This document shows positions 4,124-19,931 of a stretch of DNA of 64,000 nucleotides, in pieces (position 1 is the first letter of the stretch; every line of letters begins with the position of its first letter). A model generated the notes under the pieces. The model did no database searches, was not told where the DNA came from, and saw only the letters and a list, made by a program, of their open reading frames with translations. Origin of the DNA: Bacteroidales bacterium. Its GTDB lineage: Bacteria; Bacteroidota; Bacteroidia; Bacteroidales; FEN-979. The DNA lies in the NCBI GenBank assembly GCA_963682005.1, contig OY820914.1:4964979-5028978 (forward strand), given 5' to 3'. A program made the position numbers and the translations under genes.

Positions 4124-5209
4124 ATGAAAACAAAAACCGTTACGTTACAGACCGGCAACATCTTCGATCCTGTATTGGAGGAAATGTTGCAGAAAAGAGA
4201 TGATGAAATCAAGGTCTTAGTTGAAAAGAATGCGAAAAACTTCGCTCAACGAAACCTCCCGGCTCTTAAAGGAGACAATCTTTTAAACTATATCGGCGAA
4301 CCAAAAGCCAGATATGAAAAGCTGGCGGCCGATGTATTCCATTATCTCCAACCCGAAGCGCATTTTCCAGAAGCAAAGGTAGATGCCGGCTACTTCAAAG
4401 AGAAGGTAAAAAACATAGATTTAGAGATGAATGATAAGGAGGCTAAGAACCAGCATGACGAGAATAACTTAAGAGATTTTGCAAGAAATAGTATCCCGTC
4501 ACGCATCACCTGGGCATTCGTAGCCACTCTTATCATTACCCTCGGTGAAATAACGTTCAATACCAAAGCCTTTCAGGTGACAGGGGAAAGTCTTCTTTTC
4601 GCCTTGATCCTGTCTGTCTGTATTTCTTTTGCAGTGTTTCTCTTTGCTCACATCACTCCAATGCTTTATAAAGGAGCGACAAATAAGCTTCAAAGGATAG
4701 GCATAGTATCCGGGGCGCTTGTTCTCGTAACCTGCTTATTTATCGCCTTAGCAATCTTTAGATCAAGCTACCTGGCTACCCATGATGTCCATATCAGCCC
4801 CACATATTTTGTGATAATAAATCTTTTCTTCTTCATTGTTTCCACCCTGGTTTCATTCTTTGTCCTGCCTTCCTGGCCAGAGATAAAAGAGAACGCTTTA
4901 CTACTGAAACTTCAGTATGTTGTAAAGAAACGGAAGAAGGAAATAGAAAAGTTAAAGTTAGAACGTGAGAAAATCATGTCAACAATCTTAGAGAGGACAA
5001 AAATCCGGATCAGAATAGCACATTACTCAAACTACGCCGCCGAAAGGATCAAAAAAATGTATTACGAATCAGTAGGCATGTTTAAAACCAACAACCTGAT
5101 TTTCCGTAATGACGGCACCCCTCCTGATTGTTTTTCTGACGACCCTCCCATCCCTGAAATTGACAACTTTTATTATTCGCTGATATCCACTAAAGACGAT
5201 CAACCATGA
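4124..5209 (+). CDS. multi-pass membrane protein with coiled-coil N- and C-terminal regions (361 aa)
   Basis: About 5 hydrophobic helices in the middle (ITWAFVATLIITLG.., LLFALILSVCISFAVFLFAHI.., IGIVSGALVLVTCLFIALAIF.., YFVIINLFFFIVSTLVSFFVL). Confidence 0.6.
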   Translation: MKTKTVTLQTGNIFDPVLEEMLQKRDDEIKVLVEKNAKNFAQRNLPALKGDNLLNYIGEPKARYEKLAADVFHYLQPEAHFPEAKVDAGYFKEKVKNIDLEMNDKEAKNQHDENNLRDFARNSIPSRITWAFVATLIITLGEITFNTKAFQVTGESLLFALILSVCISFAVFLFAHITPMLYKGATNKLQRIGIVSGALVLVTCLFIALAIFRSSYLATHDVHISPTYFVIINLFFFIVSTLVSFFVLPSWPEIKENALLLKLQYVVKKRKKEIEKLKLEREKIMSTILERTKIRIRIAHYSNYAAERIKKMYYESVGMFKTNNLIFRNDGTPPDCFSDDPPIPEIDNFYYSLISTKDDQP

Positions 5210-5928
5210 AAACAGCAATTTATTTAGGCTCAACCCTTCTCATAATACTTGCCGGTATAATTATTATGAGGAAATCGCCCGATCAGCATTTTACTTCTAC
5301 CGATATAACCGTTATGCGGGATATCACGGATACTCAAATCTCACAACCCAAACTGTCCGATGTTTCCACTCTTTTAGATCTCGATAATTCAAAATGGGAT
5401 GGCGCAAACTTCAAATTCGTCGATATAACTGACGTGAGCTACAATCATATTTATGAAACTAAGATTCTACCTGAAAATCAATGGCTGGGTAATGAGTTGG
5501 ATCGGGATGAGAAAGTGAAGAAGTTCTATACTGAAATCTCCCAAATCCTTACTAATGCTGACACAGAGAAGGTAGGGAAGGTCAATTCTTCGATATATAA
5601 ACCTATTGCCTCTGAATTAAACTGTCTCAGTCTAAGTGCTTCACAAAACAAATCATTATTGGTCTACAGTGATTTGGAAGAGAATACTGACAAATTTTCT
5701 TTTTATGATAAGAAAAAAATCATCCTGTTAAGAACGGAACCGGACAGCATCCGAAAATACTTTGAAGCCCTCTCTCCCTTAAAAAATCTGACAGGAATCA
5801 AAGTCTTTCTGATTTACCAACCAAAAAATAACGAAGCCGATGAACTGTATCAACTAATTGCCGGATTGTACAAAACTCTACTGGAAAGTAAAGGAGCAAA
5901 AGTTGAAATCACCGCAAACATTAACTAA
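5206..5928 (+). CDS. membrane-anchored hypothetical protein (240 aa)
   Basis: 4-nt overlap with the upstream gene; single N-terminal TM AIYLGSTLLIILAGIIIM. Confidence 0.55.
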   Translation: MKTAIYLGSTLLIILAGIIIMRKSPDQHFTSTDITVMRDITDTQISQPKLSDVSTLLDLDNSKWDGANFKFVDITDVSYNHIYETKILPENQWLGNELDRDEKVKKFYTEISQILTNADTEKVGKVNSSIYKPIASELNCLSLSASQNKSLLVYSDLEENTDKFSFYDKKKIILLRTEPDSIRKYFEALSPLKNLTGIKVFLIYQPKNNEADELYQLIAGLYKTLLESKGAKVEITANIN

Positions 5929-5956
5929 AAGATTCAAACCCATAAAATTTTTAAAA

Positions 5957-6106
5957 ATGAAAAAGCGTGTAATCTTTTGGAGAATCTTGAAATGGTTTTT
6001 AGTACTTGCCTTCAAGATATTTATCGTTCTGCTTTGGGGAACCTTGAGATTGATAGAAGTAATCCTACAAAACCTCAATCCCTATCTTAAAAAATTGATT
6101 ACCTAA
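5957..6106 (+). CDS. small membrane protein (49 aa)
   Basis: ATG at 5957 inside the 5858..6106 ORF; hydrophobic WRILKWFLVLAFKIFIVLLWG. Confidence 0.3.
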   Translation: MKKRVIFWRILKWFLVLAFKIFIVLLWGTLRLIEVILQNLNPYLKKLIT

Positions 6107-6123
6107 CCTTTAATTAAAACAAT

Positions 6124-7587
6124 ATGAAAGCAATTATCCAAATAATAACTTTAATCTTCGACCTTCTGAAAGGTATTTTTGACCTTCTATTTGAAGCGGG
6201 TGAATTTATCTTTCAAGCTTCAACTAAAAAAAAAGGATACCATTCCTCTTTTGCCTCCCAAGGGATCTTACTTTCCAGGTATAATAACGGATTCTGTTTG
6301 ACCGGCAGAAGAAACCTGAGCAAGAAAGATTGTTACCAAAATGCTTTAATAATCGGCGGAACCGGGACCGGTAAAACCAGTATTGTACTAATCCCTTCGC
6401 TATTTACCATGCAGGATAGCCTGGTGATTCATGATCCCTCTGGTGAACTCTATAACAAAAGTGCCGGCTATTTGAAACAAAGAGGCTTTGAAATCAAAGT
6501 TCTGAATTTTGCCAAACCTCAAAATTCATCTGGCTATAATCCTTTGATACGAGCACAGACTTCTTCCGACATTCAAAAAGTAGCCTCTTTGCTAATTGAT
6601 AATACATTAGGGAGTAAAGGGAAAGATCCCTTTTGGAACATCCAGGCAGTTTCGCTTCTAACCATGCTGATCACTATCTTAAAAAAACAACCCTTCGAAT
6701 ATCAAAATCTTTGCAATGTTCGCCAACTGCTCAACAGCCTTGGGGCCAATCCTGAATCAGTCGATACGCTATTCAGCGAATATGCCGATGATACTCTGTT
6801 TACAGAATACAAATCCTTTATTTCCTACGATGAAAAAGTAGTTAGCGGAGTAATCGCTACCTGCAAAGCAGCCCTTCAAATTTTCAATGATGAATATGTA
6901 GCCAAAGTGACCTCCTTCGACAATCTAGACCTGATGGAGTTCAGAAATAAGCCGACAGCTCTGTATATTCAAAATTCCATTGCCGACCAAAAATATTACA
7001 GTGTCCTGACTTCATTGTTCTTTGAGCAATTCTTTGCCTTTCTCTTAGGACGTTTTCCGGAGAAAAAGGAAAAAGACATTTTTCTCTTGATTGACGAAGC
7101 GGCTTCTTTAAACCTGCCCACTTTACCTTTGGCAGTTGCCAATGTTCGGAAACACCGTTCAGGCATTATGCTTTTGATTCAGGATTTTAATCAGTTGACA
7201 CATCATTACGGGAAATTTGATGCGGATGGCATTAAAGCGAATTGTTTTACCAAAATGTACTTCACCGGAGGATCTCTTGAAACTACCAAAGAACTTGAGC
7301 AAACCCTCGGGAAATATGAATATGAAGATAAGAAAAAAGGAATGGTGACCCGTTCATTAATGACCAATGACGAAATCCGAACTATGAAAATCAACAAAGC
7401 TTTACTCGTTTGCGGTCATCATCCACCGATCATAGCAAGATTGAAGCCTTATTATAAAAACAAGACTTATCTGCAATACAGCCAGCTCGAATCTCCGGAT
7501 ATTGAAACAGAGAAGCTTGCCTATGTCGTTCCATTATTACTCCTTGGATCTACCAAGAAATACCATGAAGAGAACCAGGAAGCATAA
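6124..7587 (+). CDS. type IV coupling protein (TraG/VirD4/MobC-type T4CP)
   Basis: N-terminal TM, Walker A GGTGTGKTS, Walker B-like IFLLIDEAASL; sits next to the relaxase. Confidence 0.85.
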   Translation: MKAIIQIITLIFDLLKGIFDLLFEAGEFIFQASTKKKGYHSSFASQGILLSRYNNGFCLTGRRNLSKKDCYQNALIIGGTGTGKTSIVLIPSLFTMQDSLVIHDPSGELYNKSAGYLKQRGFEIKVLNFAKPQNSSGYNPLIRAQTSSDIQKVASLLIDNTLGSKGKDPFWNIQAVSLLTMLITILKKQPFEYQNLCNVRQLLNSLGANPESVDTLFSEYADDTLFTEYKSFISYDEKVVSGVIATCKAALQIFNDEYVAKVTSFDNLDLMEFRNKPTALYIQNSIADQKYYSVLTSLFFEQFFAFLLGRFPEKKEKDIFLLIDEAASLNLPTLPLAVANVRKHRSGIMLLIQDFNQLTHHYGKFDADGIKANCFTKMYFTGGSLETTKELEQTLGKYEYEDKKKGMVTRSLMTNDEIRTMKINKALLVCGHHPPIIARLKPYYKNKTYLQYSQLESPDIETEKLAYVVPLLLLGSTKKYHEENQEA

Positions 7588-8074
7588 AGGGGCAATATGG
7601 GATTATCTCGAGACCTCCGGAGTACTTGAAAATGGCACAGATGAAGAGATAAAAGCGGCAAAAAAGGCATACAGAAAAGGATACTATCTAAGCTATAAAA
7701 GAAACCAACGTGCCAACAAGCCAGAGTTTATTATCAATTTTTCATCAGAGAATGGGGAGTATAGCAAGGTAAAGATGGCCGCAAAACATCATAAGATGAC
7801 CGTGACGGCCTTTATTCGATCATCAGTACTGGCATACCTGCAACAACGATTTCTCGTCCCTAATGCATTCCAAGTAGCCCATTTAGAGGAAACCCTCTCT
7901 CAATGTTTAAATGAAATACAAAAACTCGTCGGAGCTAAAGAAAAGTACTATTGGTCAAGAGAAGAAAAGTTTGAAGCAATTGAAAAAAGGATTGAAAAAC
8001 TTGAATATGACATAGATCAAGTATTTCGAAACCCTCCATTACTCCATCATGATAATCAAAATCAAATCCTTTAA
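7565..8074 (+). CDS. relaxosome accessory protein (RHH / MobA-MobC-like)
   Basis: Start taken at MKRTRKHKG. Contains a MTVTAFIRSSVLAYL ribbon-helix-helix-like segment. Overlaps the T4CP and relaxase genes. Confidence 0.55.
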   Translation: MKRTRKHKGAIWDYLETSGVLENGTDEEIKAAKKAYRKGYYLSYKRNQRANKPEFIINFSSENGEYSKVKMAAKHHKMTVTAFIRSSVLAYLQQRFLVPNAFQVAHLEETLSQCLNEIQKLVGAKEKYYWSREEKFEAIEKRIEKLEYDIDQVFRNPPLLHHDNQNQIL

Positions 8075-8891
8075 AAAGCCCGACTTCAAGAGACTGCTTG
8101 AATACATGCTCAATGATGAAAATCGCCTTTTTAACAGTAAAGACAAAAGTTTTTTTATCAGTCACAACTTAAAGGGAAGAAAGATTGATGGGCTGGTAAA
8201 GCAGTACTTGGAGAATGAAAAATTCCGTAAACGCAAAAGGAAAGACAGCGTAATTCTTACTCACGAAATTATTTCCTTTCATAAAGACGATTCAGATAAC
8301 ATTAACATCGAAAAACTGGAAGAAATCGCCAGGGAGTATATCAAACAAAGAAATAGCAGGGGAATATATGTAGCTGTCCCTCACTTTGATAAAGAACATT
8401 ACCATATTCATATCTGCGCTTCAGGCGTGGAATACCGGTTTGGGAAATCTCTGAGAATGTCCAAGGCAGGATTCCAGAAACTAAAAAAGGATATCCAAAA
8501 TTTTCAGATCGAACGGTTTCCGGAAATTTCCAAATCCTTGGTAGCTCATGATAAAAAAGGGAAGTCTCGACAAACGGAAAAGGAATACCAGCAAAAACTT
8601 AGAACCGGCAGGACTACTAAAAAAGAAAATGTCAGAGAAGCGATTGAGTCCTGTATAAAAACATCAAAATCAAAAAAAGAATTTTACACGAAGCTTAAAG
8701 AGTCTGGCTTTGAGATTTATAAAAGAAGCGGAAAGATCACCGGCGTTGTCTTGGACAAAATGAAGTTTCGCTTTGCTCGTCTCGGATTTACGGATGAAAG
8801 GTTTGAAGATCTGAATCAAGGCGATACACGAAGGAAAGACTTAAGTGAACTTAGAACGAAACGGGGAAAAACTATTATTCGCAACCGATAA
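8049..8891 (+). CDS. mobilization relaxase (MobA/VirD2 family)
   Basis: Histidine triad HFDKEHYHIHI; size and position typical of Bacteroidota mob relaxases. Confidence 0.8.
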   Translation: MIIKIKSFKKPDFKRLLEYMLNDENRLFNSKDKSFFISHNLKGRKIDGLVKQYLENEKFRKRKRKDSVILTHEIISFHKDDSDNINIEKLEEIAREYIKQRNSRGIYVAVPHFDKEHYHIHICASGVEYRFGKSLRMSKAGFQKLKKDIQNFQIERFPEISKSLVAHDKKGKSRQTEKEYQQKLRTGRTTKKENVREAIESCIKTSKSKKEFYTKLKESGFEIYKRSGKITGVVLDKMKFRFARLGFTDERFEDLNQGDTRRKDLSELRTKRGKTIIRNR

Positions 8892-8905
8892 CCTCTATTA
8901 ATCAC

Positions 8906-9889
8906 ATGCATCATATTAAAAATCAAGCTCCGCTTGATGTATACACAATTGTAACAAACAGAATAATTGAATTGCTTGAAAAAGGCGTCATTCCTTGGCA
9001 AAAACCCTGGACCGAAGCCGGAATACCCAAGAATTTGATTACCGGAAAGAATTACCGGGGAATCAATGTCTGGCTATTAAATTCCTTAAACTACGCACAA
9101 AACAGTTTTTTAACATTTAAGCAGGTGCAGGATTTAGGAGCTTCAATAAAAAAAGGTGAAAAAGCCAATTTGGTAGTTTTTTGGAAATGGCTTGAAAAAG
9201 AAAATAAAGAAACAAAGGAAGTTGAAAGAATACCTTTACTAAGGTATTACAATGTTTTCAACATTGATCAGTGTACCGGAATACCCAAAGAGAAATTACC
9301 CCAAGTTATTGAAAGTAAAATTGACCCAATTGAAGCATGCGAAAAGATTATCACAGAAATGCCTAAGCGACCTGATATTCGACATGTTGAACAAAGAGCA
9401 TATTACAATAGATTGGAAGACTACGTAAATTTACCTAGAACAGAAACCTTTAAAACCAGTGAAGCATATTATGCTACACTTTTTCATGAGCTAGTCCACA
9501 GCAGTGGACATCCCGATAGATTAAACAGAAGGGAACTGACGGATAGCAAAGGTTTTAACTCACAGGATTACGCCGTTGAAGAATTAACCGCTGAAATGGG
9601 AGCATCTTACCTCAAATCTTATGCAGGAATCCCTATCGAACAACTTGATAACAATGCAGCTTATATCCATACCTGGCTAGAAAGATTAAAAAATGACAAA
9701 CGGTTTATAGTTCATTCCAGCGCCCAGGCACAGAAGGCAACTGATTTTATCCTAAATATCAGGAATGAAGAAAAGGAATTGGATATTCCTGAGCAAGTTG
9801 AAGATCTTGATAAAAACACTGTAAGGGAAGGGGAATTGAAAGAAACAAGAGGAAAGGAAAAAGAAAAATCTTTCGGGATTCAAAAATAA
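8906..9889 (+). CDS. ardC: ArdC-like antirestriction protein (ssDNA-binding N-domain + zincin)
   Basis: N-terminal IPWQKPW / NYRGINVWLL pattern and C-terminal HELVHSSGH metalloprotease motif. Confidence 0.8.
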   Translation: MHHIKNQAPLDVYTIVTNRIIELLEKGVIPWQKPWTEAGIPKNLITGKNYRGINVWLLNSLNYAQNSFLTFKQVQDLGASIKKGEKANLVVFWKWLEKENKETKEVERIPLLRYYNVFNIDQCTGIPKEKLPQVIESKIDPIEACEKIITEMPKRPDIRHVEQRAYYNRLEDYVNLPRTETFKTSEAYYATLFHELVHSSGHPDRLNRRELTDSKGFNSQDYAVEELTAEMGASYLKSYAGIPIEQLDNNAAYIHTWLERLKNDKRFIVHSSAQAQKATDFILNIRNEEKELDIPEQVEDLDKNTVREGELKETRGKEKEKSFGIQK

Positions 9890-9926
9890 AGATCTAGCTA
9901 ACACAGAGAATTTTTAAAGACTTCTT

Positions 9927-12518
9927 TTATCCAGATTTGCATTTAGTAATAAAATCATCAAGTAATTTAAGTTCCGCCTCAAGCTTAGAATTTTTTGGTA
10001 CCGCTGGGTTTATCCCAGCTGCCATATCATGAAGCCAGTTTGAAGACTCAGTCATTCCATCATTTACGTCTTTAATTAAGGTTGGGTTTATATCAAGACT
10101 GTCTAATCTTTGAGTTTGCACACTTTTATTAAATCTTTGAACAACTCCTTTTAATAAACGCTCTTCAACAGCTCGTTCCCAAGCTTCTCTAAGGTATTCA
10201 TACCACCCTTTAACTTCTTTTCTGTATAGATCACGGTCGCCAGTCTCAAGCTTCTTTATTCTAACCAAATCGTTTCTTAAATAACCAACTCTGCTTTTTA
10301 CATTCAAAGCAAACCAAGGGAGTTCTTTTTTTGTTACGCCAATCCGGTCACCATTCTTGCTCATTGATAACGAAATTTGCTCAACGGATTGAGCTTTGGC
10401 ATAATTTTGTAATTCTAATAGAAAAACGATATCGTGGGTTAGAACGATAACTTGGCGTTCCCTTGCCTCTTTTACGAGTCTTTTTGCAATAGTACTTCTT
10501 CTTTCGTGATCAAGAGATGTGACAGGATCATCAAAAACAATTCCAGAATTATTTCTGTCCAATTTTGATTCTGTCAGGAAATCTGCCAAGGCACTAACAG
10601 TCTGTTCTCCTTCACTCAAAATATCGCTTGGATCATATCCTCGCGCAAATTCCAACTTAAGCCCTTTGACAGTAGTGGCATCCCGGCCATGAGACTCAAC
10701 TTTGAGTCCAAAATTGCAATCAAGTTCTTCCGTCTCTTTGTTAAAAATTTCGACATACCGTGATATTACCAGTTCACCCATAATTTCTGTCTTCTTTCTG
10801 GTAGTATTACCTCTTGCTGTTGCTAGATTTATGGGTACTACAGCATTTTCCCAACGCAACCATGCAATATGTTTTTTTATTTTAGAAAGTATTCTTGACG
10901 CCTGTAGTTTTTGTTCGAGACAAGTTATCTCCCCATTTAGAGACTTTATTTCAGGGGTAGGATCAACTAGCCCAGCTTCAGTTTTCTTTTTTAATTCAAT
11001 AAGTTTGTCTATCGGCTTTAAGTTTATCCCTGGATCAGAATAGCTAACTTTTTGCTCCTTCCCGACCATATCTATCCAGTTCAAAAGTTGAGTATTTAGA
11101 TCATGAAATCCTTTTATAATCTTTTCTAAATCTGTCGCAATATCTTTTTTAAGAATTTTTATGGCAATTTCAGTCTCTGAAAAGGCTGGCCAAGTCTTAT
11201 TTATTCGTTGCAGGTCTTCCACTGATGCTCTAAGTTCCTGCCTTGCTTTCGCCAGTTCGGTCTCTGCCGTACTCTTTAAAAAATCCCAGTAATTACTAAA
11301 TAATGTTTTTTCCTTCTCTTTAAGAGATTGCCTGCAAAGAAGACAATGTTCAGGCTTAACCCCAGAATTAGAAGCAGTTTCTTTTTCGTAGAGTTTTTGA
11401 GCTGCTATGATTAATGACTTCCATTCCGGACTGCCAATATTTTTAAAAGAAGCAAAATCAAAATTTTTAACGCTTAACTTATCGGCTATTTTAATTTTAT
11501 CTTGAATCTCCTTTACCAAATTATTGATCGTTTTGGCTTTTATTCCGCTCAGACATAAGCTTTTGGTAATGAGAGTCTTTTTAAATGTATCAAGATCGTT
11601 ACATTCATCAGTCAATTCCTTTTTTTGTTTTGGTACATCCTGCTTTAGTTTTTTTGCAACTAACCTTTTTTTCTCTTCAAGTACTGTTTTGTCGACCGGT
11701 GTAAATTTTAGAGCATTATCAATTTCCTTATCTGTAGTTTTATGAGACAACGAATCTAAGAATTCGGTGACAACAGATGTGCCTGTATAGAGACCTTCTA
11801 CCGGATTATCCTGCTGCCTTGCTTCTATTTCCTCAGTCAGTTTTGCCTCGATATTTACTATGCTCTTGAATACCTCATCAAAGATTTTTATCCTTGAAGG
11901 GACAAATTCAACTTTATTCTCACTATTTAGGTGGATCAAAGCACTTTCGTGATCGAAAACAGAAAAAGATTTAAGAGCCTCATGGGTCTGGCCTAGAATA
12001 TAGTTAATAATATGTGAACCTGAGTCATCGGATACATGAAAATCAGCTGTCGCCTTTTTCGCCCGATCAGAAGTGTTTCTTGCGTTTGGTAACAATTTTC
12101 TAGGTTTTCTTGAAAGACAAGCATTACTTAGAAGTCTTCCTATGCCTGATTTGCCTGTTCCATTGTCTCCGTAAATTATTGTCAAATTTTTACCAAACTC
12201 AAGAAAACAACCCTCGTCGACAGCATTTACATCTTTTAAGTTTTCAATTTTATCAAGTGAAATTTTTGCCTTTTGAGTATCGGCCCCATTTAAATCAAGA
12301 GTAGGAAAAACAATCTTAACTCTACCTGGTCCAACTTTTATCACGCCAGAATCTTCCAAGAGATACTTATAACATTTCAAAATATCTTCATCATCAAGAA
12401 TCTCTTTTGTCATGTGCAATTGCCACAAGTACTGTTCCCAATAAGGCTTGCTTTCCAGCCACATTTTAAGACTATCAACTTTTAGCCTTTTCATTTTTTT
12501 TCCAATTTCTTCACTCAT
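9927..12518 (-). CDS. AAA_13 / RloC-PrrC-like ABC-type ATPase with coiled-coil CxxC zinc hook and a C-terminal putative nuclease region
   Basis: Walker A GDNGTGKSG, CLLC hook (11334-11345) inside a long coiled coil, D-loop/H-loop VFDDPVTSLD..LTHD. C-terminal LREAWE...NWLHD resembles the PrrC R-x3-E...H arrangement. Start taken at the ATG at 12518. Confidence 0.6.
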   Translation of the reverse strand: MSEEIGKKMKRLKVDSLKMWLESKPYWEQYLWQLHMTKEILDDEDILKCYKYLLEDSGVIKVGPGRVKIVFPTLDLNGADTQKAKISLDKIENLKDVNAVDEGCFLEFGKNLTIIYGDNGTGKSGIGRLLSNACLSRKPRKLLPNARNTSDRAKKATADFHVSDDSGSHIINYILGQTHEALKSFSVFDHESALIHLNSENKVEFVPSRIKIFDEVFKSIVNIEAKLTEEIEARQQDNPVEGLYTGTSVVTEFLDSLSHKTTDKEIDNALKFTPVDKTVLEEKKRLVAKKLKQDVPKQKKELTDECNDLDTFKKTLITKSLCLSGIKAKTINNLVKEIQDKIKIADKLSVKNFDFASFKNIGSPEWKSLIIAAQKLYEKETASNSGVKPEHCLLCRQSLKEKEKTLFSNYWDFLKSTAETELAKARQELRASVEDLQRINKTWPAFSETEIAIKILKKDIATDLEKIIKGFHDLNTQLLNWIDMVGKEQKVSYSDPGINLKPIDKLIELKKKTEAGLVDPTPEIKSLNGEITCLEQKLQASRILSKIKKHIAWLRWENAVVPINLATARGNTTRKKTEIMGELVISRYVEIFNKETEELDCNFGLKVESHGRDATTVKGLKLEFARGYDPSDILSEGEQTVSALADFLTESKLDRNNSGIVFDDPVTSLDHERRSTIAKRLVKEARERQVIVLTHDIVFLLELQNYAKAQSVEQISLSMSKNGDRIGVTKKELPWFALNVKSRVGYLRNDLVRIKKLETGDRDLYRKEVKGWYEYLREAWERAVEERLLKGVVQRFNKSVQTQRLDSLDINPTLIKDVNDGMTESSNWLHDMAAGINPAVPKNSKLEAELKLLDDFITKCKSG

Positions 12519-12538
12519 AAAACTAACTTTAGAATAGA

Positions 12539-14239
12539 CTATGCCACGGCCCAAGTAGTTACGTTTTGATGAACAAGTTGTTGCCACTGTAATTCACCCT
12601 GTGAGGTTTGATTTGATTGCCATTGGTTTTCAAGCCAAGTCTTTAACAGACTTGAATTAGAAAAGTTATTTTCAACACCTACCTGTACAAACTCAATGAA
12701 TTTCTCCAAGGACAAAGGGATAATCCGAGTAGCACCACCATAAAGGTCAGTATAATTTTTATTAAGATTATAAAAGAAAGCCAACGTTCCTTGTGAAATA
12801 TTAGGAGCAATAAAAATACAATATGTATCTCTATTTACTAGGCGTTTAAAGTTTCCATAATGCCTCGGAACAGAATCTCCTTCCATTTTAAATTGAGTTT
12901 CTCCAGAGGAAAGGGTAACTTCACCCATGATAGCAAAATCATCAAATTCAATTTCTAAATCAGGTTTATTGCCCGGTGCAGTATTCAAAGGCATTCCATC
13001 CAAATCCATAATAAAATTACCATCTATGCGTCTAGCGTAATTTAGCATTACAAACGAGCGCCAAGTATTCCATTCAAGGAATAAAGATGGATCAGGAGCA
13101 TCCTTATCAATAATACTCTGGAATACATCAAGTATATCCTGAAATTCTTTGCGACTGCGTAATTCGATCTTTTTTTCCTCTATATTCTTCTTCTGGGTGG
13201 TTATCTTAAGATCATCAAAAATGTTCTTTAATTCTTCAATCCCCAAATCCAATTCTCCAGGTCCAAATTTCTTCAATCCTTCAATTTTGTGAATTAACAT
13301 AGTCTTGTCATCTGAAAGGAGGGGAATAGAATAAGGATTAAACATATATTCCTTGAATTCGCTCAAGGTTTTATATTCTGTAGGTTCTCTATTAATATTA
13401 GAAAGGATAAATTGAACCTCTTCAGTTTTATACGGTGAAATAATCAACCTTAAAGTTTTTTTCTCAAATGTAACTAATTCAGTGGCACGCACATATCTAA
13501 TAATTGCGTCAGCATAATCTTTCATATTTGACTTCTTCGTTCTGATAAATTCCTTCAAGGACGAATCTTCACTTTCCCTTGTAGCTGTATCACCTCGCTC
13601 AATTTCATTACCATAGATTTCTAGAATTTCTCTTTCAAAAACCTCATGTACATACATTTTTCTACTTCCAGGATACGATCTGCTACCTTCCCTAAAAGCT
13701 ATAATTTTTTTAATGATCACGTCATATTTGGAAATATTTACCAATTGCAAAAAGAAAATAGCTAATTCAGTCTTTGAAAGACTACCGAGATCGAGTATCA
13801 ACCTAATCAATTCCAGGTAAGGTTTAACAAAAAAGTTAGTGGTTCTTGATTGTAAATGATATGGAGATGGAAGCTGAAACTTTAACAATTGACGAGTGAA
13901 CGTTTCATCTATACGTTTCTCCGTTAGCAATAATTTTCCAGCAGAGGTGAGATTTATTACCGGTTTCAAGTCAATAAAACCTAACGCTTGTGGGGCTCTC
14001 GTAATTCTATCTCGAGCTGCAAAAGCAGGATCAGATGGGTAATTCTCACCTTCATAAAAAGAAGAGTGAAATAACTGATCAAAAAATTCAGCCTGTAATT
14101 CCTGATTTCCAGACCATACCTTGCCTTCAAAACTTGAACACAACAATCCAATCTCTGGAATGATTTTACTTATTGTCCTTGGAGAAGTAAAACCGAAAAT
14201 AGTTTTTGATTTACTTAGATTAGCCATATTTATTCCCAA
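12539..14239 (-). CDS. AlwI/PleI/MlyI/N.BstNBI-family type IIS restriction endonuclease
   Basis: SPRTISKIIPEIGLL..FEGKVW..RDRITRAPQALGFI at the N-terminus and PDLEIEFDDFAIMGEVTLSSGETQFKMEGDSVPRHY..RIIPLSLEKF at the C-terminus match my memory of this family. Confidence 0.8.
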   Translation of the reverse strand: MGINMANLSKSKTIFGFTSPRTISKIIPEIGLLCSSFEGKVWSGNQELQAEFFDQLFHSSFYEGENYPSDPAFAARDRITRAPQALGFIDLKPVINLTSAGKLLLTEKRIDETFTRQLLKFQLPSPYHLQSRTTNFFVKPYLELIRLILDLGSLSKTELAIFFLQLVNISKYDVIIKKIIAFREGSRSYPGSRKMYVHEVFEREILEIYGNEIERGDTATRESEDSSLKEFIRTKKSNMKDYADAIIRYVRATELVTFEKKTLRLIISPYKTEEVQFILSNINREPTEYKTLSEFKEYMFNPYSIPLLSDDKTMLIHKIEGLKKFGPGELDLGIEELKNIFDDLKITTQKKNIEEKKIELRSRKEFQDILDVFQSIIDKDAPDPSLFLEWNTWRSFVMLNYARRIDGNFIMDLDGMPLNTAPGNKPDLEIEFDDFAIMGEVTLSSGETQFKMEGDSVPRHYGNFKRLVNRDTYCIFIAPNISQGTLAFFYNLNKNYTDLYGGATRIIPLSLEKFIEFVQVGVENNFSNSSLLKTWLENQWQSNQTSQGELQWQQLVHQNVTTWAVA

Positions 14240-15042
14240 AATTTATTTTCATCAACGGATGCAGATTTAGGTTGCAGAATATCCTTACCAGTTAATTTGT
14301 ATTCTACTATTCGTTTTTTTGAAATTTCAAGTGCTTTTTCCGATATATCACATCCAACAAAGGTGCATTTGTTTTTTAGGGCTGCTATCGCTGAGGAAGC
14401 ACTACCTAAGAATGGATCGCAAACAGTAAAATTCTTATCTCCACTTGCAAATATCATTGCTTGGAATACTTCAACTGGTTTTTGCGTTGGATACTTGCTC
14501 GCGTGTATTCTTTTGAACCTCCAAACGTCAGGAAAGGTCCTATTTCGTATATGACGGTTATTACCATTAGTAGCAAAGATAATATATTCATGCCGTCGTC
14601 TAAAGTAATGCCCCATCCCAATATTCACCTTATCCCAAGTAATTAAATTTTTTACATCAAAGTACTCTCTTACTAGATGACCAAGGCTAAGCATGGAAAA
14701 TGAATCAAACATGATATAGATGTGTCCTGTCGAGGGTTTAAGGACCCGTTTACATTGTGTTAAAAACAATCTATAGTTCTCAGCCGAATCTTCAAACTCA
14801 CCAAACCATTTTCCGTTCTCCTTGCCTTTGTCTGAATATTGACCAACTATTCTACCTTTACCAAGCATAAGTTTATTGTTCATTCCAGAATAAGCTGGAT
14901 CAGTGACAATAATGTCTACACTTTGATCTGGTAATTTGCTTAGAAACGAGATCGCATCATCTCTAAATATCTTAACAGAGTTATCAGAGGATGAATAATA
15001 TAAGGTTTTTTTTGGGCGTACTTTTGGGCTACTCTTAGTCAT
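14230..15042 (-). CDS. beta-class N6A/N4C DNA methyltransferase
   Basis: Motif IV-like TDPAYSG lies N-terminal to motif I CDPFLGSASS; 10-nt overlap with the endonuclease gene. Confidence 0.85.
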   Translation of the reverse strand: MTKSSPKVRPKKTLYYSSSDNSVKIFRDDAISFLSKLPDQSVDIIVTDPAYSGMNNKLMLGKGRIVGQYSDKGKENGKWFGEFEDSAENYRLFLTQCKRVLKPSTGHIYIMFDSFSMLSLGHLVREYFDVKNLITWDKVNIGMGHYFRRRHEYIIFATNGNNRHIRNRTFPDVWRFKRIHASKYPTQKPVEVFQAMIFASGDKNFTVCDPFLGSASSAIAALKNKCTFVGCDISEKALEISKKRIVEYKLTGKDILQPKSASVDENKFWE

Positions 15043-15400
15043 AAAAATTTCTAATTCAACAATATATCAATGCTCGTAATAAATTCATTTGTATTCATTG
15101 TACACGATTCAAGCGTATTTTCAAGCTCCTTCGAACAAAGGTAAAAAAAAGGACTTCTGCAACGGCCTTTTATCTTATTTAAGGACCAACAAAGGATCGT
15201 TAACGAAATCAAAACTGAGTTAGATTTACAAGAAGAAACAACAATTCAAATAGAAGCGAAGAGGAACAAGATTGCCAAAATTATTGAAAAAGCAATAAAA
15301 GCGTTAGCCATCCATAGGAGATTAATGATGATTTTTGGGCTTGTTATTTTACATATTATGTATATTTACATGAGTTATTCATACCCAAATTTATTATCCC

Positions 15401-16288
15401 ATGAAAAAGCCAGCTTCTGAACCTAAATCAAAAGCTCAAAATCTAAGCTTTAACGTTTTGAATATTCGTCTTCATTCAAACTCAAGAACGGGCCCCAATG
15501 CTTATTTTGAAATTTTTGAAAAAATTGCTGATTCAAGAACAGTTGTGCAAGTTTCGATTGATAGATTTATAATCTTAAGGACAAAGTTTGTCACAGAAAT
15601 TTCAGGACAAAAGATTATTTATGGTAAAATTGCCGGATTCACAAAAATTTCAGAAACCAATTGGCTAAATATTAATAATTTAGAGGTGGAATCAGTCGTA
15701 ATTCCCGCTGATCATTTTCCTAATATTCGTGAAACAGACTATATATTCATTCCGGCTGCACATAGAATTGCTATTGTTAAATCTCCCCAATTCGGACTCT
15801 ACAATGCAATTAAATTCTTGAACGAATCATTACTAAAAGTAATTGGTAGTGATGAACAAATAGACGTTATTATTGAGCAAAGTTCTGATATTTTCAAGGA
15901 AATTATGGAGGCTCCAATTATCAGGAGTCTTGACATTGAAATATCCTATAGTAATGCTGATATTAAACATGGTGAATATTATAAATGGCTTGATGATGAA
16001 TTAAGGGAAGCCGAAGTCGGAAATATTAAGCTCTCAATCCGGCCAGATCAAAATAATGAAATAAAAATTGATAACAGCCAACTTATCAAGGGCGCATTAA
16101 GCGTTGCGCAAAGTAATGGTTCTGTGTCAGCTACTATTATTACACCTGAGAGAAAGAGAAAAAAAATAATTACAAAGTTTCACCCTGAGATATTTCGGAG
16201 AAAGATAGATCATCCCGATGAAAAAAATCCAAGTATTTTTGCAATGATAATGGAACGGTTTAGAAATAAGTCACATGAAGGAAACTGA
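15401..16288 (+). CDS. hypothetical soluble protein (295 aa), first gene of an unassigned two-gene cassette
   Basis: ORF; no catalytic motif recognised. N-terminal FNVLNIRLHSNS..YFEIFEKI pattern only vaguely reminiscent of a DUF family. Confidence 0.6.
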   Translation: MKKPASEPKSKAQNLSFNVLNIRLHSNSRTGPNAYFEIFEKIADSRTVVQVSIDRFIILRTKFVTEISGQKIIYGKIAGFTKISETNWLNINNLEVESVVIPADHFPNIRETDYIFIPAAHRIAIVKSPQFGLYNAIKFLNESLLKVIGSDEQIDVIIEQSSDIFKEIMEAPIIRSLDIEISYSNADIKHGEYYKWLDDELREAEVGNIKLSIRPDQNNEIKIDNSQLIKGALSVAQSNGSVSATIITPERKRKKIITKFHPEIFRRKIDHPDEKNPSIFAMIMERFRNKSHEGN

Positions 16289-16922
16289 CCCTGTAAAAGC
16301 TAGACATAAAAAGGGCATTATTGGAATCATCCAGTCATATGGATTAAGCAATATTATATGGAGCTTCCCCTCAATTACTAGCTTATTGCTCTCGATTTTG
16401 GTTGTGGGTTTTCTATATTTTAATCAACAGTATAATAGTCATGATATATTAATAAAATTGTCAGACTTATCACTTTTAATATATCCAAGTCTGCTGGGTT
16501 TCAGTTTAGGTGGCTATGCTTTAATTATTGGATTTGGTAATACTTCCTTACTAAAATCAATGACTCGAACCAAAACAGATAAAGATTTCACAATCTTTCA
16601 AAGGATGAACGGGATATTTGCTTTCGGACTACTATTACAAGTGCTCGAACTAATATTCGCCTTTATTATTAAATTTACGAACATTCTCGAAGGATCCAAC
16701 AGAATTTCTTTTTTCCTCACACATCCCAATATTAGCCAGATATTAAATTTAGGTGGCAACTTTCTGCTTTTATGGTGGGCTTGTTGGAGTCTAATTATGA
16801 TCCCTTTCATTGTGTCAAATGTTTTCTTATTCGGACAAATGCACCATCTATACTTGACGAAACAAAGAATGATAGAGGACAGACAAAAGGAGGCTGAGAA
16901 ACAAAAAGAGCCGAAGGCCTAG
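16275..16922 (+). CDS. 4-5 TM membrane protein (215 aa), second gene of the cassette
   Basis: 14-nt overlap with the upstream ORF; hydrophobic segments SLLLSILVVGFLYF, LGFSLGGYALIIGFG, IFAFGLLLQVLELIFAFII, LLLWWACWSLIMIPFIVSNVFLF. Confidence 0.6.
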   Translation: MKETDPVKARHKKGIIGIIQSYGLSNIIWSFPSITSLLLSILVVGFLYFNQQYNSHDILIKLSDLSLLIYPSLLGFSLGGYALIIGFGNTSLLKSMTRTKTDKDFTIFQRMNGIFAFGLLLQVLELIFAFIIKFTNILEGSNRISFFLTHPNISQILNLGGNFLLLWWACWSLIMIPFIVSNVFLFGQMHHLYLTKQRMIEDRQKEAEKQKEPKA

Positions 16923-16936
16923 CTTCTGCTCACTAC

Positions 16937-16961
16937 AGCCAACAATAACTTGTGGCTTTTT
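16937..16961 (+). terminator. weak rho-independent terminator after the membrane-protein gene
   Basis: AGCCA(A)CA ... TGTGGCT stem followed by TTTTT. Confidence 0.4.
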
Positions 16962-17053
16962 CATTCTTTTCGCTACGCTTCATTCAATAAATAATCACAA
17001 TCCACAAGCTGACAATAATATAGTAGGGTAGTAATTCCGAATTTAGGGGGTAC

Positions 17054-17165
17054 GGGGGACAACGTCCCTCGCAAGATTGCGTGTGGCGGTTTACGAAGTT
17101 TACCGTCCACACGCAATCTTGCTATTGAGCCGGCGAGCTTGAATTTAGCTGTGCCGAAGGCTCAA
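17054..17165. other. compact triple-hairpin structured element between convergent genes
   Basis: Hairpins at 17054-17070, 17071-17122 and 17125-17165. The middle one is 20 bp with one bulged T at 17106. No T-run follows. Confidence 0.6.
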
Positions 17166-17192
17166 CAATGGGTGACTATATACGAGATGGGA

Positions 17193-17498
17193 TTAGTTCT
17201 CACCCAGGAAACCCGAAAGATACTTTCTACATCGTGTACTAAGTTCATCAGCGATTATACTTAGAGTGTCTCCCATGAAACCATCTTCTTCTGCTCTTGC
17301 TAATGTACCCCTTGCTCCTTCATATAAACGTTTAGTTAAGTCTATAATGTCTCTAAGGTATGAGGTACTTAATATTCTCGCACCATCCTTTTCGGGGTTA
17401 ATAAATTTAGCCTTTTTATCAGCCATTTCATTTATAAAACCAAAATAGATGTCATCTATTTTTTCAAGTTCTTCAGATAAAAATTGAGAAAGTTCCAT
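17193..17498 (-). CDS. hypothetical protein (101 aa)
   Basis: ORF only; helical, acidic. Confidence 0.45.
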   Translation of the reverse strand: MELSQFLSEELEKIDDIYFGFINEMADKKAKFINPEKDGARILSTSYLRDIIDLTKRLYEGARGTLARAEEDGFMGDTLSIIADELSTRCRKYLSGFLGEN

Positions 17499-17902
17499 AA
17501 TCCTGTGTTTTGATGAATAACAAATATACGGAGTTCAACAGGTCGAAAAAGAAAAGAAGTTGGGAAAATATAAATTTGTTATTGTATAATGGCTTCCCCC
17601 TTAGTGACTATAATAGAAAAACCTCTTCTATAAAAGAAATTTTAAAAAGAACCAAAAACAAAGTATTTGTAATTGTATTGTGTCGATGTTAATTGGGAGA
17701 TAACCTCTTTAAAGCCTGTGTGTGAGGCGTTATCCTCAATTAATATCGAAATTATTGTCACTTTTTTGTTGACTTATATGAAAAAACTCATTAAAGACAT
17801 TGATAATAAAGTAAATAACCATAGAATTGAACTCCTCTTTTGATGATCAGAATAGTTTAACCTTTTTATGTTACCCACTCAAAATTACAAAGTGACTTTA
17901 TA

Positions 17903-17930
17903 AAAGCCCAATGCAAATGCATTAGGCTTT
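17903..17930 (-). terminator. terminator downstream of the radC-like gene
   Basis: AAAGCCCAATGCA / TGCATTAGGCTTT stem (1 mismatch) followed on the minus strand by TTTTAT. Confidence 0.55.
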
Positions 17931-17939
17931 TATTGTTAG

Positions 17940-18428
17940 CTAAAGTAACCCTTCGTCAGCAAAAGTAAAATAAGCACCGCTTGATGCGATGATTAAATGA
18001 TCGAGAACTTTTATATCCAAAAGACTCCCAGCTTCTTTCATTCTCTTTGTCAATGTTATATCCGATTCACTAGGTTGAATATTCTGTGAGGGATGATTAT
18101 GACAAAGTATCAAATTACTTGCATTTGTCTGAAGCGCAAGCATAAAAACGATTTTTACATCGACAACGGTTCCACTTGTACCTCCTGAACTTAGTCTAAA
18201 CCAGCCCAGGATGTTGTTAGCCCTATTGAGAAGGAGCAAATAAAACTCTTCCTTAAGCTCAATGGTGTTTATATCAAAAAGGGGATAGAGAGCATTAAAT
18301 GCATCTCTGGAATTCAAAATCTTCGTTTTGTTGCTCGATTTTGTTTTATAACTCACAAAAATTTCGGCAAGCCCGGGACTTTTTTCACTTGTGCTTGCCT
18401 CAATGACATTTTTCATATTCCTGTTCAT
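17940..18428 (-). CDS. radC: RadC-like JAB/MPN domain protein
   Basis: JAMM motif HNHPSQNIQPSESD; start taken at MNRNMKN (the upstream ORF extension has no ATG). Confidence 0.8.
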   Translation of the reverse strand: MNRNMKNVIEASTSEKSPGLAEIFVSYKTKSSNKTKILNSRDAFNALYPLFDINTIELKEEFYLLLLNRANNILGWFRLSSGGTSGTVVDVKIVFMLALQTNASNLILCHNHPSQNIQPSESDITLTKRMKEAGSLLDIKVLDHLIIASSGAYFTFADEGLL

Positions 18429-18557
18429 ACTTTCTTTTTTAAAATGATTACTTTTTTCTATTCGGTTTTCAAAAACCAGTTCTGTCGAGGAGTATAGCGA
18501 CTGATAATTAAAAATCAAGATTGACAAAAAAACATGGAAATGTGGAATAAAATCAGA

Positions 18558-18573
18558 GTATTGTGCGACATGG
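18558..18573 (-). repeat. left copy of the TGTCGCAYAAT motif (inverted relative to the two right copies)
   Basis: GTATTGTGCGACATGG; its reverse complement CCATGTCGCACAATAC matches 19842-19854 and 19932-19945. Confidence 0.6.
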
Positions 18574-18812
18574 GGGTATTGACATTGTGGATAACTTGGT
18601 ATATACTCTTCTCATTACAATTTAATAACAGAGTCGTTGTCCCTTTAATGGGACTCTCCTTAACCGGAGCGGAACGAAACAACGGTGTCTGTGTTTAAAA
18701 GCATTCTTACTGGCATTTTAAAGTATTCGTGTTAAGATTGCTTTTGGAGGTTTTATTTAGAAACTTCCAAAAGCCATTTTATACCATTTACCGGTAAATA
18801 ATGTGCTTACAC

Positions 18813-18842
18813 AAGACCCGCAGGTTCGTTCCGGCGGGTCTT
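18813..18842 (+). promoter_or_regulatory. 9-bp perfect hairpin ending 7 nt before the recombinase ATG
   Basis: AAGACCCGC (18813-18821) / GCGGGTCTT (18834-18842) with a 12-nt loop. Confidence 0.45.
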
Positions 18843-18849
18843 ATGTATT

Positions 18850-19728
18850 ATGAAAGAAAAAATAAAAAAGTATTTAGAGTGGAAGGGGACTTATGCCCCA
18901 CGTGCCAGTGAAAATTATAAGATCTGGTTGGATAGATTTATTGAAATATGCGGTGACAAGCCCATACAAAAATATCAGATCGGGGACTACGTGAAATATC
19001 AGAGTTGGATAGAATCTCATTTTAGCTCATATTGCGTGCAATATTCGACTGTCATTATCAAAAACTTCTTCAAATTCTACCGTGATCAGAATATTAAATG
19101 TATGTCGCCATCGTTTATAAAAATTCCTCGTGCTCACAGGAATTCACACCGGGCTATTAATGAGGAAGAGTATAGAAAAACAATATCAGGAATACCAAGT
19201 AATAACTTTCGCTCATTGCGGGACCTTTTAATAATCCGTTTTCTTTGGGATACCGGTGTGCGTGTCTCGGAACTTTGCGATCTAAACATCTCTCAGATAA
19301 ATGAGAACAGTAGCTCTTGTGCTATCTATACTAAAAAGAACGGAAACCCGCGTATTATTGTTTGGTCCGAAGAAACACACAGGTATCTGATAAAATACCT
19401 TTCCATTCGCCTTGAATTGGACAAGGTACATCATTCCTCCGCTCTTTTTCCCGGCTTAGGTATAGATCATTGTTGGAAAGGAAGGATAACATCCCGAAGT
19501 GTACAGAGAATTATAAAAATAAATGTCAGTAACGCAGGCATAAAAGAAAAAATCACCCCTCACAGTTTTCGTCATGGATGGGCACATATGCGAAGGGACC
19601 AAAACGCACCCCTGGCCTTCATTCAGAGGGGACTAGGGCACGTCAGCCCAACATCGACCTTTATTTATGAGCAGTATAACGATAATGAATTTGTAAAAAA
19701 TGCCAATGTCTATTTTAGCCCAGCTTAG
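18850..19728 (+). CDS. small tyrosine recombinase (XerC/D-like, 292 aa)
   Basis: DTGVRVSEL (Arg), HSFRHGWA (HxxR), LGHVSPTSTFIY (His/Tyr). Confidence 0.85.
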   Translation: MKEKIKKYLEWKGTYAPRASENYKIWLDRFIEICGDKPIQKYQIGDYVKYQSWIESHFSSYCVQYSTVIIKNFFKFYRDQNIKCMSPSFIKIPRAHRNSHRAINEEEYRKTISGIPSNNFRSLRDLLIIRFLWDTGVRVSELCDLNISQINENSSSCAIYTKKNGNPRIIVWSEETHRYLIKYLSIRLELDKVHHSSALFPGLGIDHCWKGRITSRSVQRIIKINVSNAGIKEKITPHSFRHGWAHMRRDQNAPLAFIQRGLGHVSPTSTFIYEQYNDNEFVKNANVYFSPA

Positions 19729-19841
19729 TGGTTTTCCACTTGCAACCGTAAATTGTCTATGCTACGCTTTTATGAGTGTTTTTTCGTTCGTTAACAACAA
19801 AGCAGAAAGTGGTGAGCAGCTTCACTTTATAGAAAACACCT

Positions 19842-19854
19842 CATGTCGCATAAT
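19842..19854 (+). repeat. right copy 1 of the TGTCGCAYAAT motif
   Basis: CATGTCGCATAAT, 114 nt after the recombinase stop. Confidence 0.6.
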
Positions 19855-19931
19855 GTTTGTTGGAAAGACAGGGAAGGGTATGTTAAAACGGCCTTAATTC
19901 ACAAGATTTTATCTTGTGCTTGAAGTATTTA

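Follow-up and report, generated by a model that had tools for sequence, protein, structure and literature searches.

A RloC-Family Zinc-Hook ATPase Downstream of an AlwI-Family Type IIS Restriction–Modification Pair in a Bacteroidales Mobile Element

Gene organization of the locus and architecture of the ATPase

The locus described here lies at positions 9927-15042 of a 64,000-nt stretch of a Bacteroidales genome (contig OY820914.1), hereafter the window, within the cargo of an integrative mobilizable element that occupies approximately positions 1-19800. It consists of three co-directional minus-strand genes taken from the open reading frame (ORF) list, encoding a DNA methyltransferase (MTase), an AlwI-family restriction endonuclease (REase), and an 863-aa ATP-binding cassette (ABC) ATPase whose sequence points to membership in the RloC family (Table 1). 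The MTase stop codon is separated by 2 nt from the ATG of the REase (14227), and the ATG of the ATPase (12518) lies 20 nt past the REase stop codon (TAG, 12541-12539). An initial annotation, made from the sequence of the window alone, had described the same arrangement; its spacing and orientation were exact, and all genes and motifs that it named were present in the ORF list and the translation. The start at ATG 12518 is the one used in public gene calls, and the alignments of homologues begin at the same methionine. On these grounds an in-frame GTG at 12587, which would give a protein of 886 aa overlapping the 3′ end of the REase gene by 49 nt, was rejected. No terminator-like hairpin was found in the MTase–REase or the REase–ATPase gap, with promoter and terminator scans performing overall at chance level. 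The ATPase gene is probably co-transcribed with the MTase–REase cassette.

The ATPase showed Pfam matches to AAA_13 (1e-14), SMC_N, AAA_21, and AAA_23. An AlphaFold model of the full protein, built on 87 homologues (predicted local distance difference test, pLDDT, 86.5), predicted the order N-terminal extension, ABC N-lobe, helical insert, ABC C-lobe, and C-terminal domain. Conservation was followed in two sets of homologues, namely the 87 obtained from databases and 79 full-length proteins from one-genome-per-species loci of many phyla, most of the latter being 26-37% identical to the query. Within the ABC head, S635, G637, D663, D664, P665, S668, and H695 were invariant in the 87 homologues; in the second set S635, G637, E638, D663, D664, and P665 were retained in 79/79 proteins and H695 in 78/79. 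In the rest of the protein, C392, C395, G727, and H830 were invariant among the 87 homologues and R777, E781, and R795 were at least 90% conserved, while all 79 full-length proteins carried C392, C395, G727, R777, E781, and H830, and 78 of them carried R795. Because this conservation goes far beyond chance, the hook and the polar cluster of the C-terminal domain are taken to be functional.

In the model, the CLLC motif sits about halfway along the insert, in a loop flanked by helices 364-383 and 401-414, and its two cysteines are the sole residues invariant across the whole insert in the 87 homologues; it is predicted to form a zinc hook and to bind Zn. The N-terminal helical extension contains W20 (in 62/79 homologues) and W27 (in 71/79, otherwise F). 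It is absent from canonical RloC, and the hhalign alignment with canonical RloC begins at query column 98. This extension might act as a DNA- or partner-binding module. When the full model was compared with the PDB using Foldseek, coiled-coil-bearing SMC and Rad50 heads ranked first, followed by SbcC, JetC, RecN, AriA, and a retron ATPase. The nearest solved proteins by sequence profile were Rad50 heads and AriA; Rad50/SbcC and the SMC-like defence ATPases represent the best Foldseek and hidden Markov model (HMM) matches among solved structures. The sequence-profile search of the PDB found no structure of RloC or PrrC.

Regarding the restriction–modification (R-M) pair, the REase aligned with Pfam RE_AlwI over model positions 3-440 of 441 (3.7e-54), and its closest solved relative was the large subunit of N.BspD6I (PDB 2ewf, 4.3e-63), with the recognition and catalytic parts both covered. 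Its top PADLOC models were those designated 'Type II nicking endonuclease'. The MTase matched the PADLOC type II methyltransferase model PDLC03379 (4.6e-132) and partly resembled CcrM-type adenine methylases (NCBIfam, 3.4e-21, under the cutoff of that model); it is likely the cognate methylase of the AlwI-family endonuclease. An RE_AlwI enzyme with an adjacent methyltransferase, here 2 nt away, defines an AlwI-family type IIS R-M system, and the pair has the appearance of a complete BspD6I/PleI-like cassette. It resembles the group of R.BspD6I, N.BstNBI, PleI, and MlyI in the match to the N.BspD6I large subunit and in the single adjacent N6/N4 methylase, but unlike the heterodimeric R.BspD6I it is not accompanied by a gene for a small-subunit paralogue anywhere in the window. 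Judging from these matches, the REase may only nick DNA or may homodimerize like PleI/MlyI.

As for the recognition sites of such enzymes, GAGTC/GACTC (the BspD6I/PleI site) was rarer than expected in the chromosomal portion of the window, where GC is higher (20001-64000; 32 observed vs 67 expected), and GGATC/GATCC (the AlwI site) was commoner than expected in the same part (141 observed vs 67 expected), the expectation in both cases being a crude mononucleotide one that does not control for codon or dinucleotide bias. Neither count deviated in the low-GC element (1-20000).

Table 1. Coordinates of the genes, domains, and motifs discussed in the text. Positions refer to the window, except for the last three rows, in which they refer to the loci named.
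Feature	Position	Strand	Basis or remark
RloC-family zinc-hook ABC ATPase (by sequence), 863 aa	9927..12518	-	PADLOC PDC-S06 sub-model PDLC04891
N-terminal helical extension, ~85 residues	12264..12518	-	model helices H12-22, H26-37, H43-56
Walker A/P-loop GDNGTGKS, residues 117-124	12147..12170	-	translation; G117, G122, K123 invariant
Coiled-coil insert splitting the ABC head, residues ~208-598, ~390 aa	10725..11897	-	AlphaFold helices, pLDDT mostly 80-92
CLLC motif (predicted zinc hook), residues 392-395 (C392, C395)	11334..11345	-	coordinates verified by translation
Signature LSEGEQ (634-639), Walker B/D-loop FDDPVTSLD (662-670), H-loop H695	10434..10619	-	translation
C-terminal helical domain, residues 735-863, putative anticodon-nuclease effector (RloC/PrrC-like, HEPN-like)	9930..10316	-	
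R777-x3-E781	10176-10190	-	within C-terminal domain
R795	10134-10136	-	within C-terminal domain
H830	10029-10031	-	within C-terminal domain
AlwI-family type IIS restriction (or nicking) endonuclease, 562 aa	12539..14227	-	Pfam RE_AlwI
DNA methyltransferase, 270 aa, beta-class N6/N4	14230..15042	-	Pfam N6_N4_Mtase 3.3e-26
TraG/VirD4 coupling protein	6124-7587		
Relaxase	8049-8891		
ArdC-type anti-restriction protein	8906..9889	+	Pfam ArdcN 1.1e-31, MPTase-PolyVal (zincin peptidase) 3.5e-34
RadC	17940-18527		
Tyrosine integrase	18850-19728		
PDDEXK_1 gene of a close relative	L083:10597-11346		
PDDEXK_1 gene of a close relative	L087:9597-10379		
PDDEXK_1 gene of a close relative	L097:8603-9358		

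Family assignment and the C-terminal domain

RloC has been defined by ABC motifs, a coiled-coil/CXXC insert, and a C-proximal Arg-X3-Glu-X36-52-His motif in a protein of 658-897 aa, and many of the members tabulated with this definition (Table S1 of that study) measure 844-895 aa (Davidov & Kaufmann 2008, PMC2610378). The ATPase, with 863 aa, carries each of these elements: GDNGTGKS, LSEGEQ, FDDPVTSLD, and H695 are invariant or nearly so in the homologues, CLLC 392-395 lies within the insert that splits the head, and the triad is represented by R777-x3-E781-x48-H830. In the sequence, LREAWE corresponds to residues 776-781 and NWLHD to residues 827-831, which places E781 and H830 49 residues apart. 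The corresponding residues of GkaRloC are R692, E696, and H737, mutation of any of which abolishes anticodon nuclease (ACNase) activity (PMC2610378). The initial annotation had likened the motif to the PrrC triad. The three residues are present in 79/79 homologues; the nuclease homology of the C-terminal domain taken alone remained below significance.

The protein also gave a significant full-length HMM match to the PADLOC model PDLC04891 (3.8e-175; residues 15-860 aligned with positions 5-853 of 858), which is the mark of the single-gene phage-defence candidate PDC-S06, as well as matches to the PDC-S06 models PDLC04893, PDLC04888, and PDLC04892. For comparison, canonical RloC was represented by two clades, here called P0098-like and P0177-like, whose members are named 'wobble nucleotide-excising tRNase' by JGI/NCBI. 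These clades match other PDC-S06 models (PDLC04895 at 1e-69 and PDLC04886 at 1e-254), and P0177 additionally hits the PADLOC PrrC model by way of its nuclease domain (positions 130-348 of 372). Since canonical RloC matches PDC-S06 models too, PDC-S06 is the RloC superfamily. When the family of the window protein was aligned with the P0098 clade using hhalign, the probability was 99.9 (E 1.7e-33), the two families aligned colinearly from head to C-terminus, and R777/E781 were placed on R685/E689 of the RloC clade. Membership of the 863-aa ATPase in the RloC family, by the published definition, is well supported by these sequence comparisons, and within it the protein belongs to a large (~830-900 aa) subclass equivalent to PDC-S06/PDLC04891. 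The profile comparison proposed in the initial annotation was thus borne out at full length, with the PDC-S06 match and the RloC alignment, and fell short of significance for the C-terminal domain alone.

The other families considered were rejected. An OLD-family identity, which calls for an ABC ATPase with a Toprim nuclease domain at its C-terminus, found no Toprim/OLD match in Pfam or PADLOC, and the C-terminal domain is all-helical after a beta-hairpin. Wadjet (JetABCD), in which a JetC-type SMC shares an operon with its kleisin/KITE partners (JetA, JetB) and the JetD nuclease, was likewise set aside, because the neighbours are the MTase, the REase, and ArdC, PADLOC gave no Jet match, and the likeness to JetC is confined to the fold. 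The RloC-like ATPase of the initial annotation is supported over these two families, and the protein has the predicted zinc hook and an R-x3-E...H triad that fits the published RloC motif. Matches to Lamassu, Septu, PARIS, and Gabija in PADLOC were weak and limited to the P-loop or Walker B level. PrrC does not fit a protein of 863 aa with a coiled-coil/zinc-hook insert and a type IIS pair as its neighbour; the PADLOC PrrC model aligned only with residues 657-722, around Walker B (E 3.4e-5).

When compared with known systems, the window protein shares with canonical RloC the ABC head split by a coiled coil with CXXC, the triad, and the character of a single-gene mobile module that is occasionally linked to R-M systems and occasionally to ArdC. 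In contrast to canonical RloC, it is ~60-90 residues longer, has the conserved N-terminal helical extension, and is not automatically annotated as RloC. Like PrrC (EcoPrrC, 396 aa), it joins an ABC-type NTPase to a C-terminal domain, here a putative RNase, with an Arg-Glu-His triad (R320/E324/H356 in EcoPrrC), and some relatives of the window protein occupy the position of prrC between hsdS and hsdR. PrrC (~340-420 aa), however, lacks a coiled-coil/zinc-hook insert, is half the size, and is invariably linked to, and silenced by, a type Ic R-M system. The combination of head, coiled coil, and zinc hook is also seen in Rad50/SbcC, JetC (Wadjet), AriA (PARIS), LmuB (Lamassu), and the retron I-A ATPase; unlike these systems, the window contains no Mre11/SbcD, JetABD, AriB, or LmuA genes, and none of those proteins has a conserved C-terminal R/E/H domain. 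The likeness to PDC-S06 extends over the full length, PDC-S06 itself being a computational candidate only, which in the papers found was listed in genome surveys without a functional test.

Residues 705-863, modelled alone, gave a beta-hairpin followed by five helices with a pLDDT of 92.9. A phmmer search with the same residues against 1.84 billion cluster representatives (clusters at 50% identity) retrieved 1255 proteins at E <= 1e-3. Among the 150 of these matches that were listed, the domain was C-terminal without exception, the full-length carriers measured ~830-900 aa, and the shorter ones looked like gene fragments. The RloC and PrrC nucleases have been classed as HEPN domains, which have an all-alpha fold with a four-helix up-down core (PMC3710099), and HEPN proteins made up approximately 10 of the top 50 Foldseek matches of the C-terminal domain in the PDB, mixed with unrelated four-helix bundles; these included 2hsb, 1o3u, HepT (7bxo/6m6u), sacsin (3o10), HI0074 (1jog), 7ae6, and Las1 (7y16). 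Among viral structures, Foldseek returned no match. The C-terminal domains of the two canonical RloC clades align with each other at an E-value of just 4e-4, from which it follows that RloC C-terminal domains diverge fast. An intermediate protein (P0096) weakly links both sides (P 0.0097 and 0.0033), with the R-x3-E helix always in register.

Several observations weigh against the identification of the protein, and of its C-terminal domain in particular, as an anticodon nuclease of the RloC type. The hhalign comparisons of the isolated domain stayed below significance both with the P0098 clade (E 0.11, with R, E, and H830/H746 co-aligned) and with the P0177 clade (E 0.25), and HMM searches between the domain and the two canonical clades gave no match. 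Pfam has no match for the domain, the Pfam and PDB sequence searches returned noise only (e.g., GCN4 coiled coils and PHTF1), and both Pfam AAA_13 and the PADLOC PrrC model cover the ATPase part alone. The Foldseek matches in the PDB were weak (E 0.05-1, TM-score 0.3-0.47), and four-helix bundles are promiscuous in such comparisons. Furthermore, the HEPN motif Rx4-6H is absent: H830 is preceded by GMTESSNWL, which lacks an Arg at the distance of 4-6 residues, and the position upstream of H830 is not kept as Arg in the family, in which the conserved arginines are those at 777 and 795. Ser often precedes the catalytic His in RloC (PMC2610378), and the P0177 clade carries RYINRESH; in the window protein the preceding residue is L829, and a conserved S/C is found at position 826. 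Finally, JGI never names members of this large subclass RloC, and no experiments on any of them were found in the literature searched. On balance, the most likely reading of the C-terminal domain is an anticodon nuclease, a reading that is unproven and in which both RNase activity and a tRNA target are deduced from sequence.

Neighbourhoods of related ATPases and interpretation of the pairing

The neighbours of the ATPase family were tallied in a distant sample of 80 related genomic loci, taking the two nearest genes on each side. These neighbours were highly variable, yet R-M domains formed the most frequent class. Upstream, they comprised N6_Mtase (5), Eco57I (5), MmeI_Mtase (4), ResIII (4), EcoEI_R_C (3), HSDR_N (3), and Methylase_S (2); downstream, N6_Mtase (3), ResIII (3), N6_N4_Mtase (3), Methylase_S (2), GmrSD (2), and Type ISP (1). 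Other defence neighbours of family members included TIR, HD-CE, AAA_21, QatABCD, and GmrSD. An AlwI-family enzyme was present in 0/80 of these loci.

Among the close relatives of the ATPase (at least 50% identity), R-M genes were situated directly upstream and co-directionally in at least 5 of the 9 with an intact upstream flank. The gene of the closest relative (P0002, 79% identity) lies 5 nt after hsdR, P0035 is embedded in the order hsdM-x-hsdS-ATPase-hsdR, P0045 follows hsdR-hsdM-hsdS-UvrD, P0009 occupies a type II-like locus downstream of a pair of N6_N4 methylases and two unknown ORFs, and P0042 is found beside divergent methylases. The relatives P0027, P0025, and P0020 had no R-M neighbour, and the loci of P0026 and P0048 are cut upstream. 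The family also occurred on 199 plasmid records and is frequent on plasmids of Staphylococcus, Klebsiella, and Pseudomonas; a relative on a Moellerella plasmid shows the order hsdM-hsdS-ATPase-hsdR, and on a Staphylococcus epidermidis plasmid the ATPase gene stands alone. As for the REase, the two closest relatives found (62-64% identity, from one metagenome scan with the REase) belong to plain MTase–REase cassettes with housekeeping or transposase genes as neighbours and no ATPase gene beside them.

The R-M pair and the ATPase were found together nowhere else among the 80 loci and the two REase relatives, which counts against the explanation favoured below. A conserved trio of the AlwI-family pair and the ATPase was rejected, because none of the 80 loci has the AlwI-family enzyme and the REase relatives lack the ATPase. 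The dedicated three-gene system suggested by the initial annotation is not sustained by these comparisons, nor by the close ATPase relatives, which stand in type I loci, in another type II-like locus, or alone. The ATPase is an autonomous module that has repeatedly landed beside several R-M types, the AlwI pairing being one particular combination.

The contrast drawn in the initial annotation, a type IIS pair in place of a type I system, implies novelty. Table S1 of the 2008 study, which covers 73 RloC orthologues, already lists the RloC of Petrotoga mobilis (ZP_01777264, 757 aa) as flanked by a 'Type IIS restriction system' and that of Leeuwenhoekiella as flanked by an Eco57I-related enzyme (PMC2610378). 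The same table gives 'DNA repair RadC, integrase, ArdC' for Bradyrhizobium sp. BTAi1 (YP_001243161, 874 aa) and 'Type III R-M, ArdC' for Rhodobacterales HTCC2150 (870 aa), and its authors took the linkage to ArdC as a hint of PrrC-like activation (PMC2610378). With both on record there, the type IIS link and the mobile-element context are not new, and relatives of the window protein also adjoin MmeI-, Eco57I-, and Type ISP-type enzymes. The neighbours of the window ATPase are of the same kinds (type IIS R-M, ArdC, RadC, and integrase), a likeness drawn from the listed neighbours only; in contrast, the organisms are different, and the Petrotoga protein is 757 aa long.

A further feature of the close clade is a PDDEXK_1 gene that begins 4-5 nt past the ATPase stop codon in P0002, P0009, and P0045. 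The three PD-(D/E)xK nucleases are 59-82% mutually identical and diverge in parallel with their ATPases, and their hosts are scattered over the neighbour-joining tree of the clade, in which the window protein is sister to P0002. The gene is absent from the 80 distant loci and from the window, in which the stop codon of the ATPase borders directly on ArdC (gap 9890-9926). The simplest reading is that the PD-(D/E)xK protein was an ancestral partner in the close clade and underwent several losses, one of them in the window. This pairing also counts against an anticodon nuclease, as it points to a possible DNA-directed partner that the window lacks.

The best explanation of the locus, which we favour with moderate confidence, is that of a mobile RloC-type tRNase module situated behind a type IIS cassette. 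In the characterized proteins GkaRloC and AbaRloC, a DNA-dependent ATPase and the zinc hook govern the ACNase as an internal switch, and inducers of double-strand breaks activate RloC even without an R-M system (PMC3458546, PMC3874168). By analogy, the Rad50-like head, coiled coil, and Zn hook of the window protein would form an internal switch that senses DNA, probably ends or breaks, and hydrolyses ATP. Hydrolysis would unlock a metal-independent C-terminal RNase with R777, E781, and H830 as catalytic residues, probably aided by R795; the RNase would cleave tRNA anticodon loops and stop translation, resulting in abortive infection. The R-M pair would serve as the first line of defence and the ATPase as a facultative second line, triggered by DNA ends that restriction produces or acting when restriction is blocked or fails. 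A trigger by DNA ends fits the neighbourhoods because any R-M class serves as neighbour. Gene order, domain architecture, motif conservation, family membership by sequence and profile, and the modular neighbourhoods are shown by the comparisons above; the functional steps, among them sensing of DNA ends and cross-talk with the R-M pair, are what we infer from these parallels, and they could take place here.

Somewhat unlikely, in our estimate, is a coincidence in which two independent defence cargos stand side by side in a cargo hotspot of the mobile element, linked functionally by nothing more than possible read-through transcription. In all comparators each module is found without its counterpart, the genes lie in a cargo stretch between the mobilization genes (TraG/VirD4, relaxase, ArdC) and RadC/integrase, and other family members have unrelated defence genes as neighbours (e.g., QatABCD, TIR, GmrSD, and HD-CE). 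However, R-M genes are the most frequent neighbours of the family, and their co-directional position directly upstream in the majority of close relatives with an intact flank suggests selection for the pairing beyond mere chance. Coincidence is moreover compatible with the RloC identity of the ATPase and differs from the favoured tRNase module only with respect to synergy.

A Rad50/SbcC-like, DNA-directed system is unlikely. Here the ATPase would sense or clamp foreign DNA and work with a separate nuclease, the C-terminal domain being an adaptor or regulatory module; the nuclease would be the PD-(D/E)xK protein in the close relatives and in the window may be the REase, or there may be none. 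The co-diverging PDDEXK_1 genes and their scatter on the tree, suggestive of an ancestral partner lost in the window, are consistent with such a system, as are the closest folds (Rad50, SMC, JetC, and AriA heads), all of which work with partner nucleases or effectors, and the unproven homology of the C-terminal domain to ACNases. Against it, homologues with and without a PD-(D/E)xK gene alike retain R777, E781, and H830 without exception and R795 almost always, which fits an intrinsic catalytic site, and the order and spacing of the motif match the mutationally validated RloC triad. The PD-(D/E)xK gene is, in addition, missing from all the distant loci and from the window.

A PrrC-style guard is very doubtful. 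In such an obligate trio, the ATPase would be bound and silenced by the AlwI-family REase/MTase and freed only on inactivation of this enzyme by an anti-restriction factor of a phage or plasmid. The tight co-directional packing with gaps of 2 and 20 nt and no terminator in either, the relatives that sit in the prrC slot (hsdM-hsdS-ATPase-hsdR), and the adjacent ArdC gene, a linkage already read as a hint of PrrC-like activation (PMC2610378), are in its favour. However, members of the same clade are found behind type I, other type II-like, or no R-M genes, so that a specific fit to the AlwI-family pair is unlikely; the nearest REase relatives occur without the ATPase, and characterized RloC has an internal switch for which no external silencer is needed (PMC3458546). 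A long shot is that the large subclass comprises Rad50-like defence ATPases and not anticodon nucleases, with the PD-(D/E)xK partner lost and the type IIS (possibly nicking) REase rewired as effector, in which case a restriction enzyme used or regulated directly by an ATPase as its effector would represent a novel form of cooperation between R-M systems and ATPases.

If the tRNase module is the right explanation, the locus would represent layered immunity carried as mobile cargo, with restriction backed by a self-contained module for translation shutoff. RloC-type modules would then plug in behind any restriction class (type I, IIS/IIG, or III), a versatility that fits a generic signal such as DNA ends and not a specific protein partner. 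The comparisons also allow the RloC superfamily to be recognized in the PADLOC candidate PDC-S06, and the large subclass, with its 1255 cluster representatives and conserved R/E/R/H set, lends itself to mutational tests. Current views are not overturned by this locus, which is fairly ordinary and has had counterparts on record since 2008.

Mobile-element context

The element carrying the locus has a GC content of ~0.32-0.39, compared to 0.41-0.47 beyond ~36 kb of the window. The ArdC gene is convergent with the ATPase gene, their stop codons being 37 nt apart, and is part of the context, outside the probable operon. In the sample of 80 distant loci, ArdC was found within 10 kb of the ATPase gene in 3 and RadC within ~1 kb upstream in 4. 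Near-identical copies of the element were identified on two metagenome contigs (L081 and L082). The TraG/VirD4 gene is annotated as shorter in one of them, encoding 429 aa and followed by small ORFs (L081:11569-12858), than in the other, where it encodes 487 aa (L082:12995-14458); this discrepancy suggests a frameshift or an assembly difference.

Divergent from the methylase gene, positions 15401-16922 on the plus strand encode a DUF4747 protein of 295 aa and an overlapping multi-pass membrane protein of 215 aa. This unit could be another cargo or defence pair; PADLOC gave no matches for it, for ArdC, or for RadC. A DUF4747 homologue was also found near a family member in another locus (L040). 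In the chromosomal part of the window, a very large ORF of 2020 aa is located at 24409-30471 on the minus strand.

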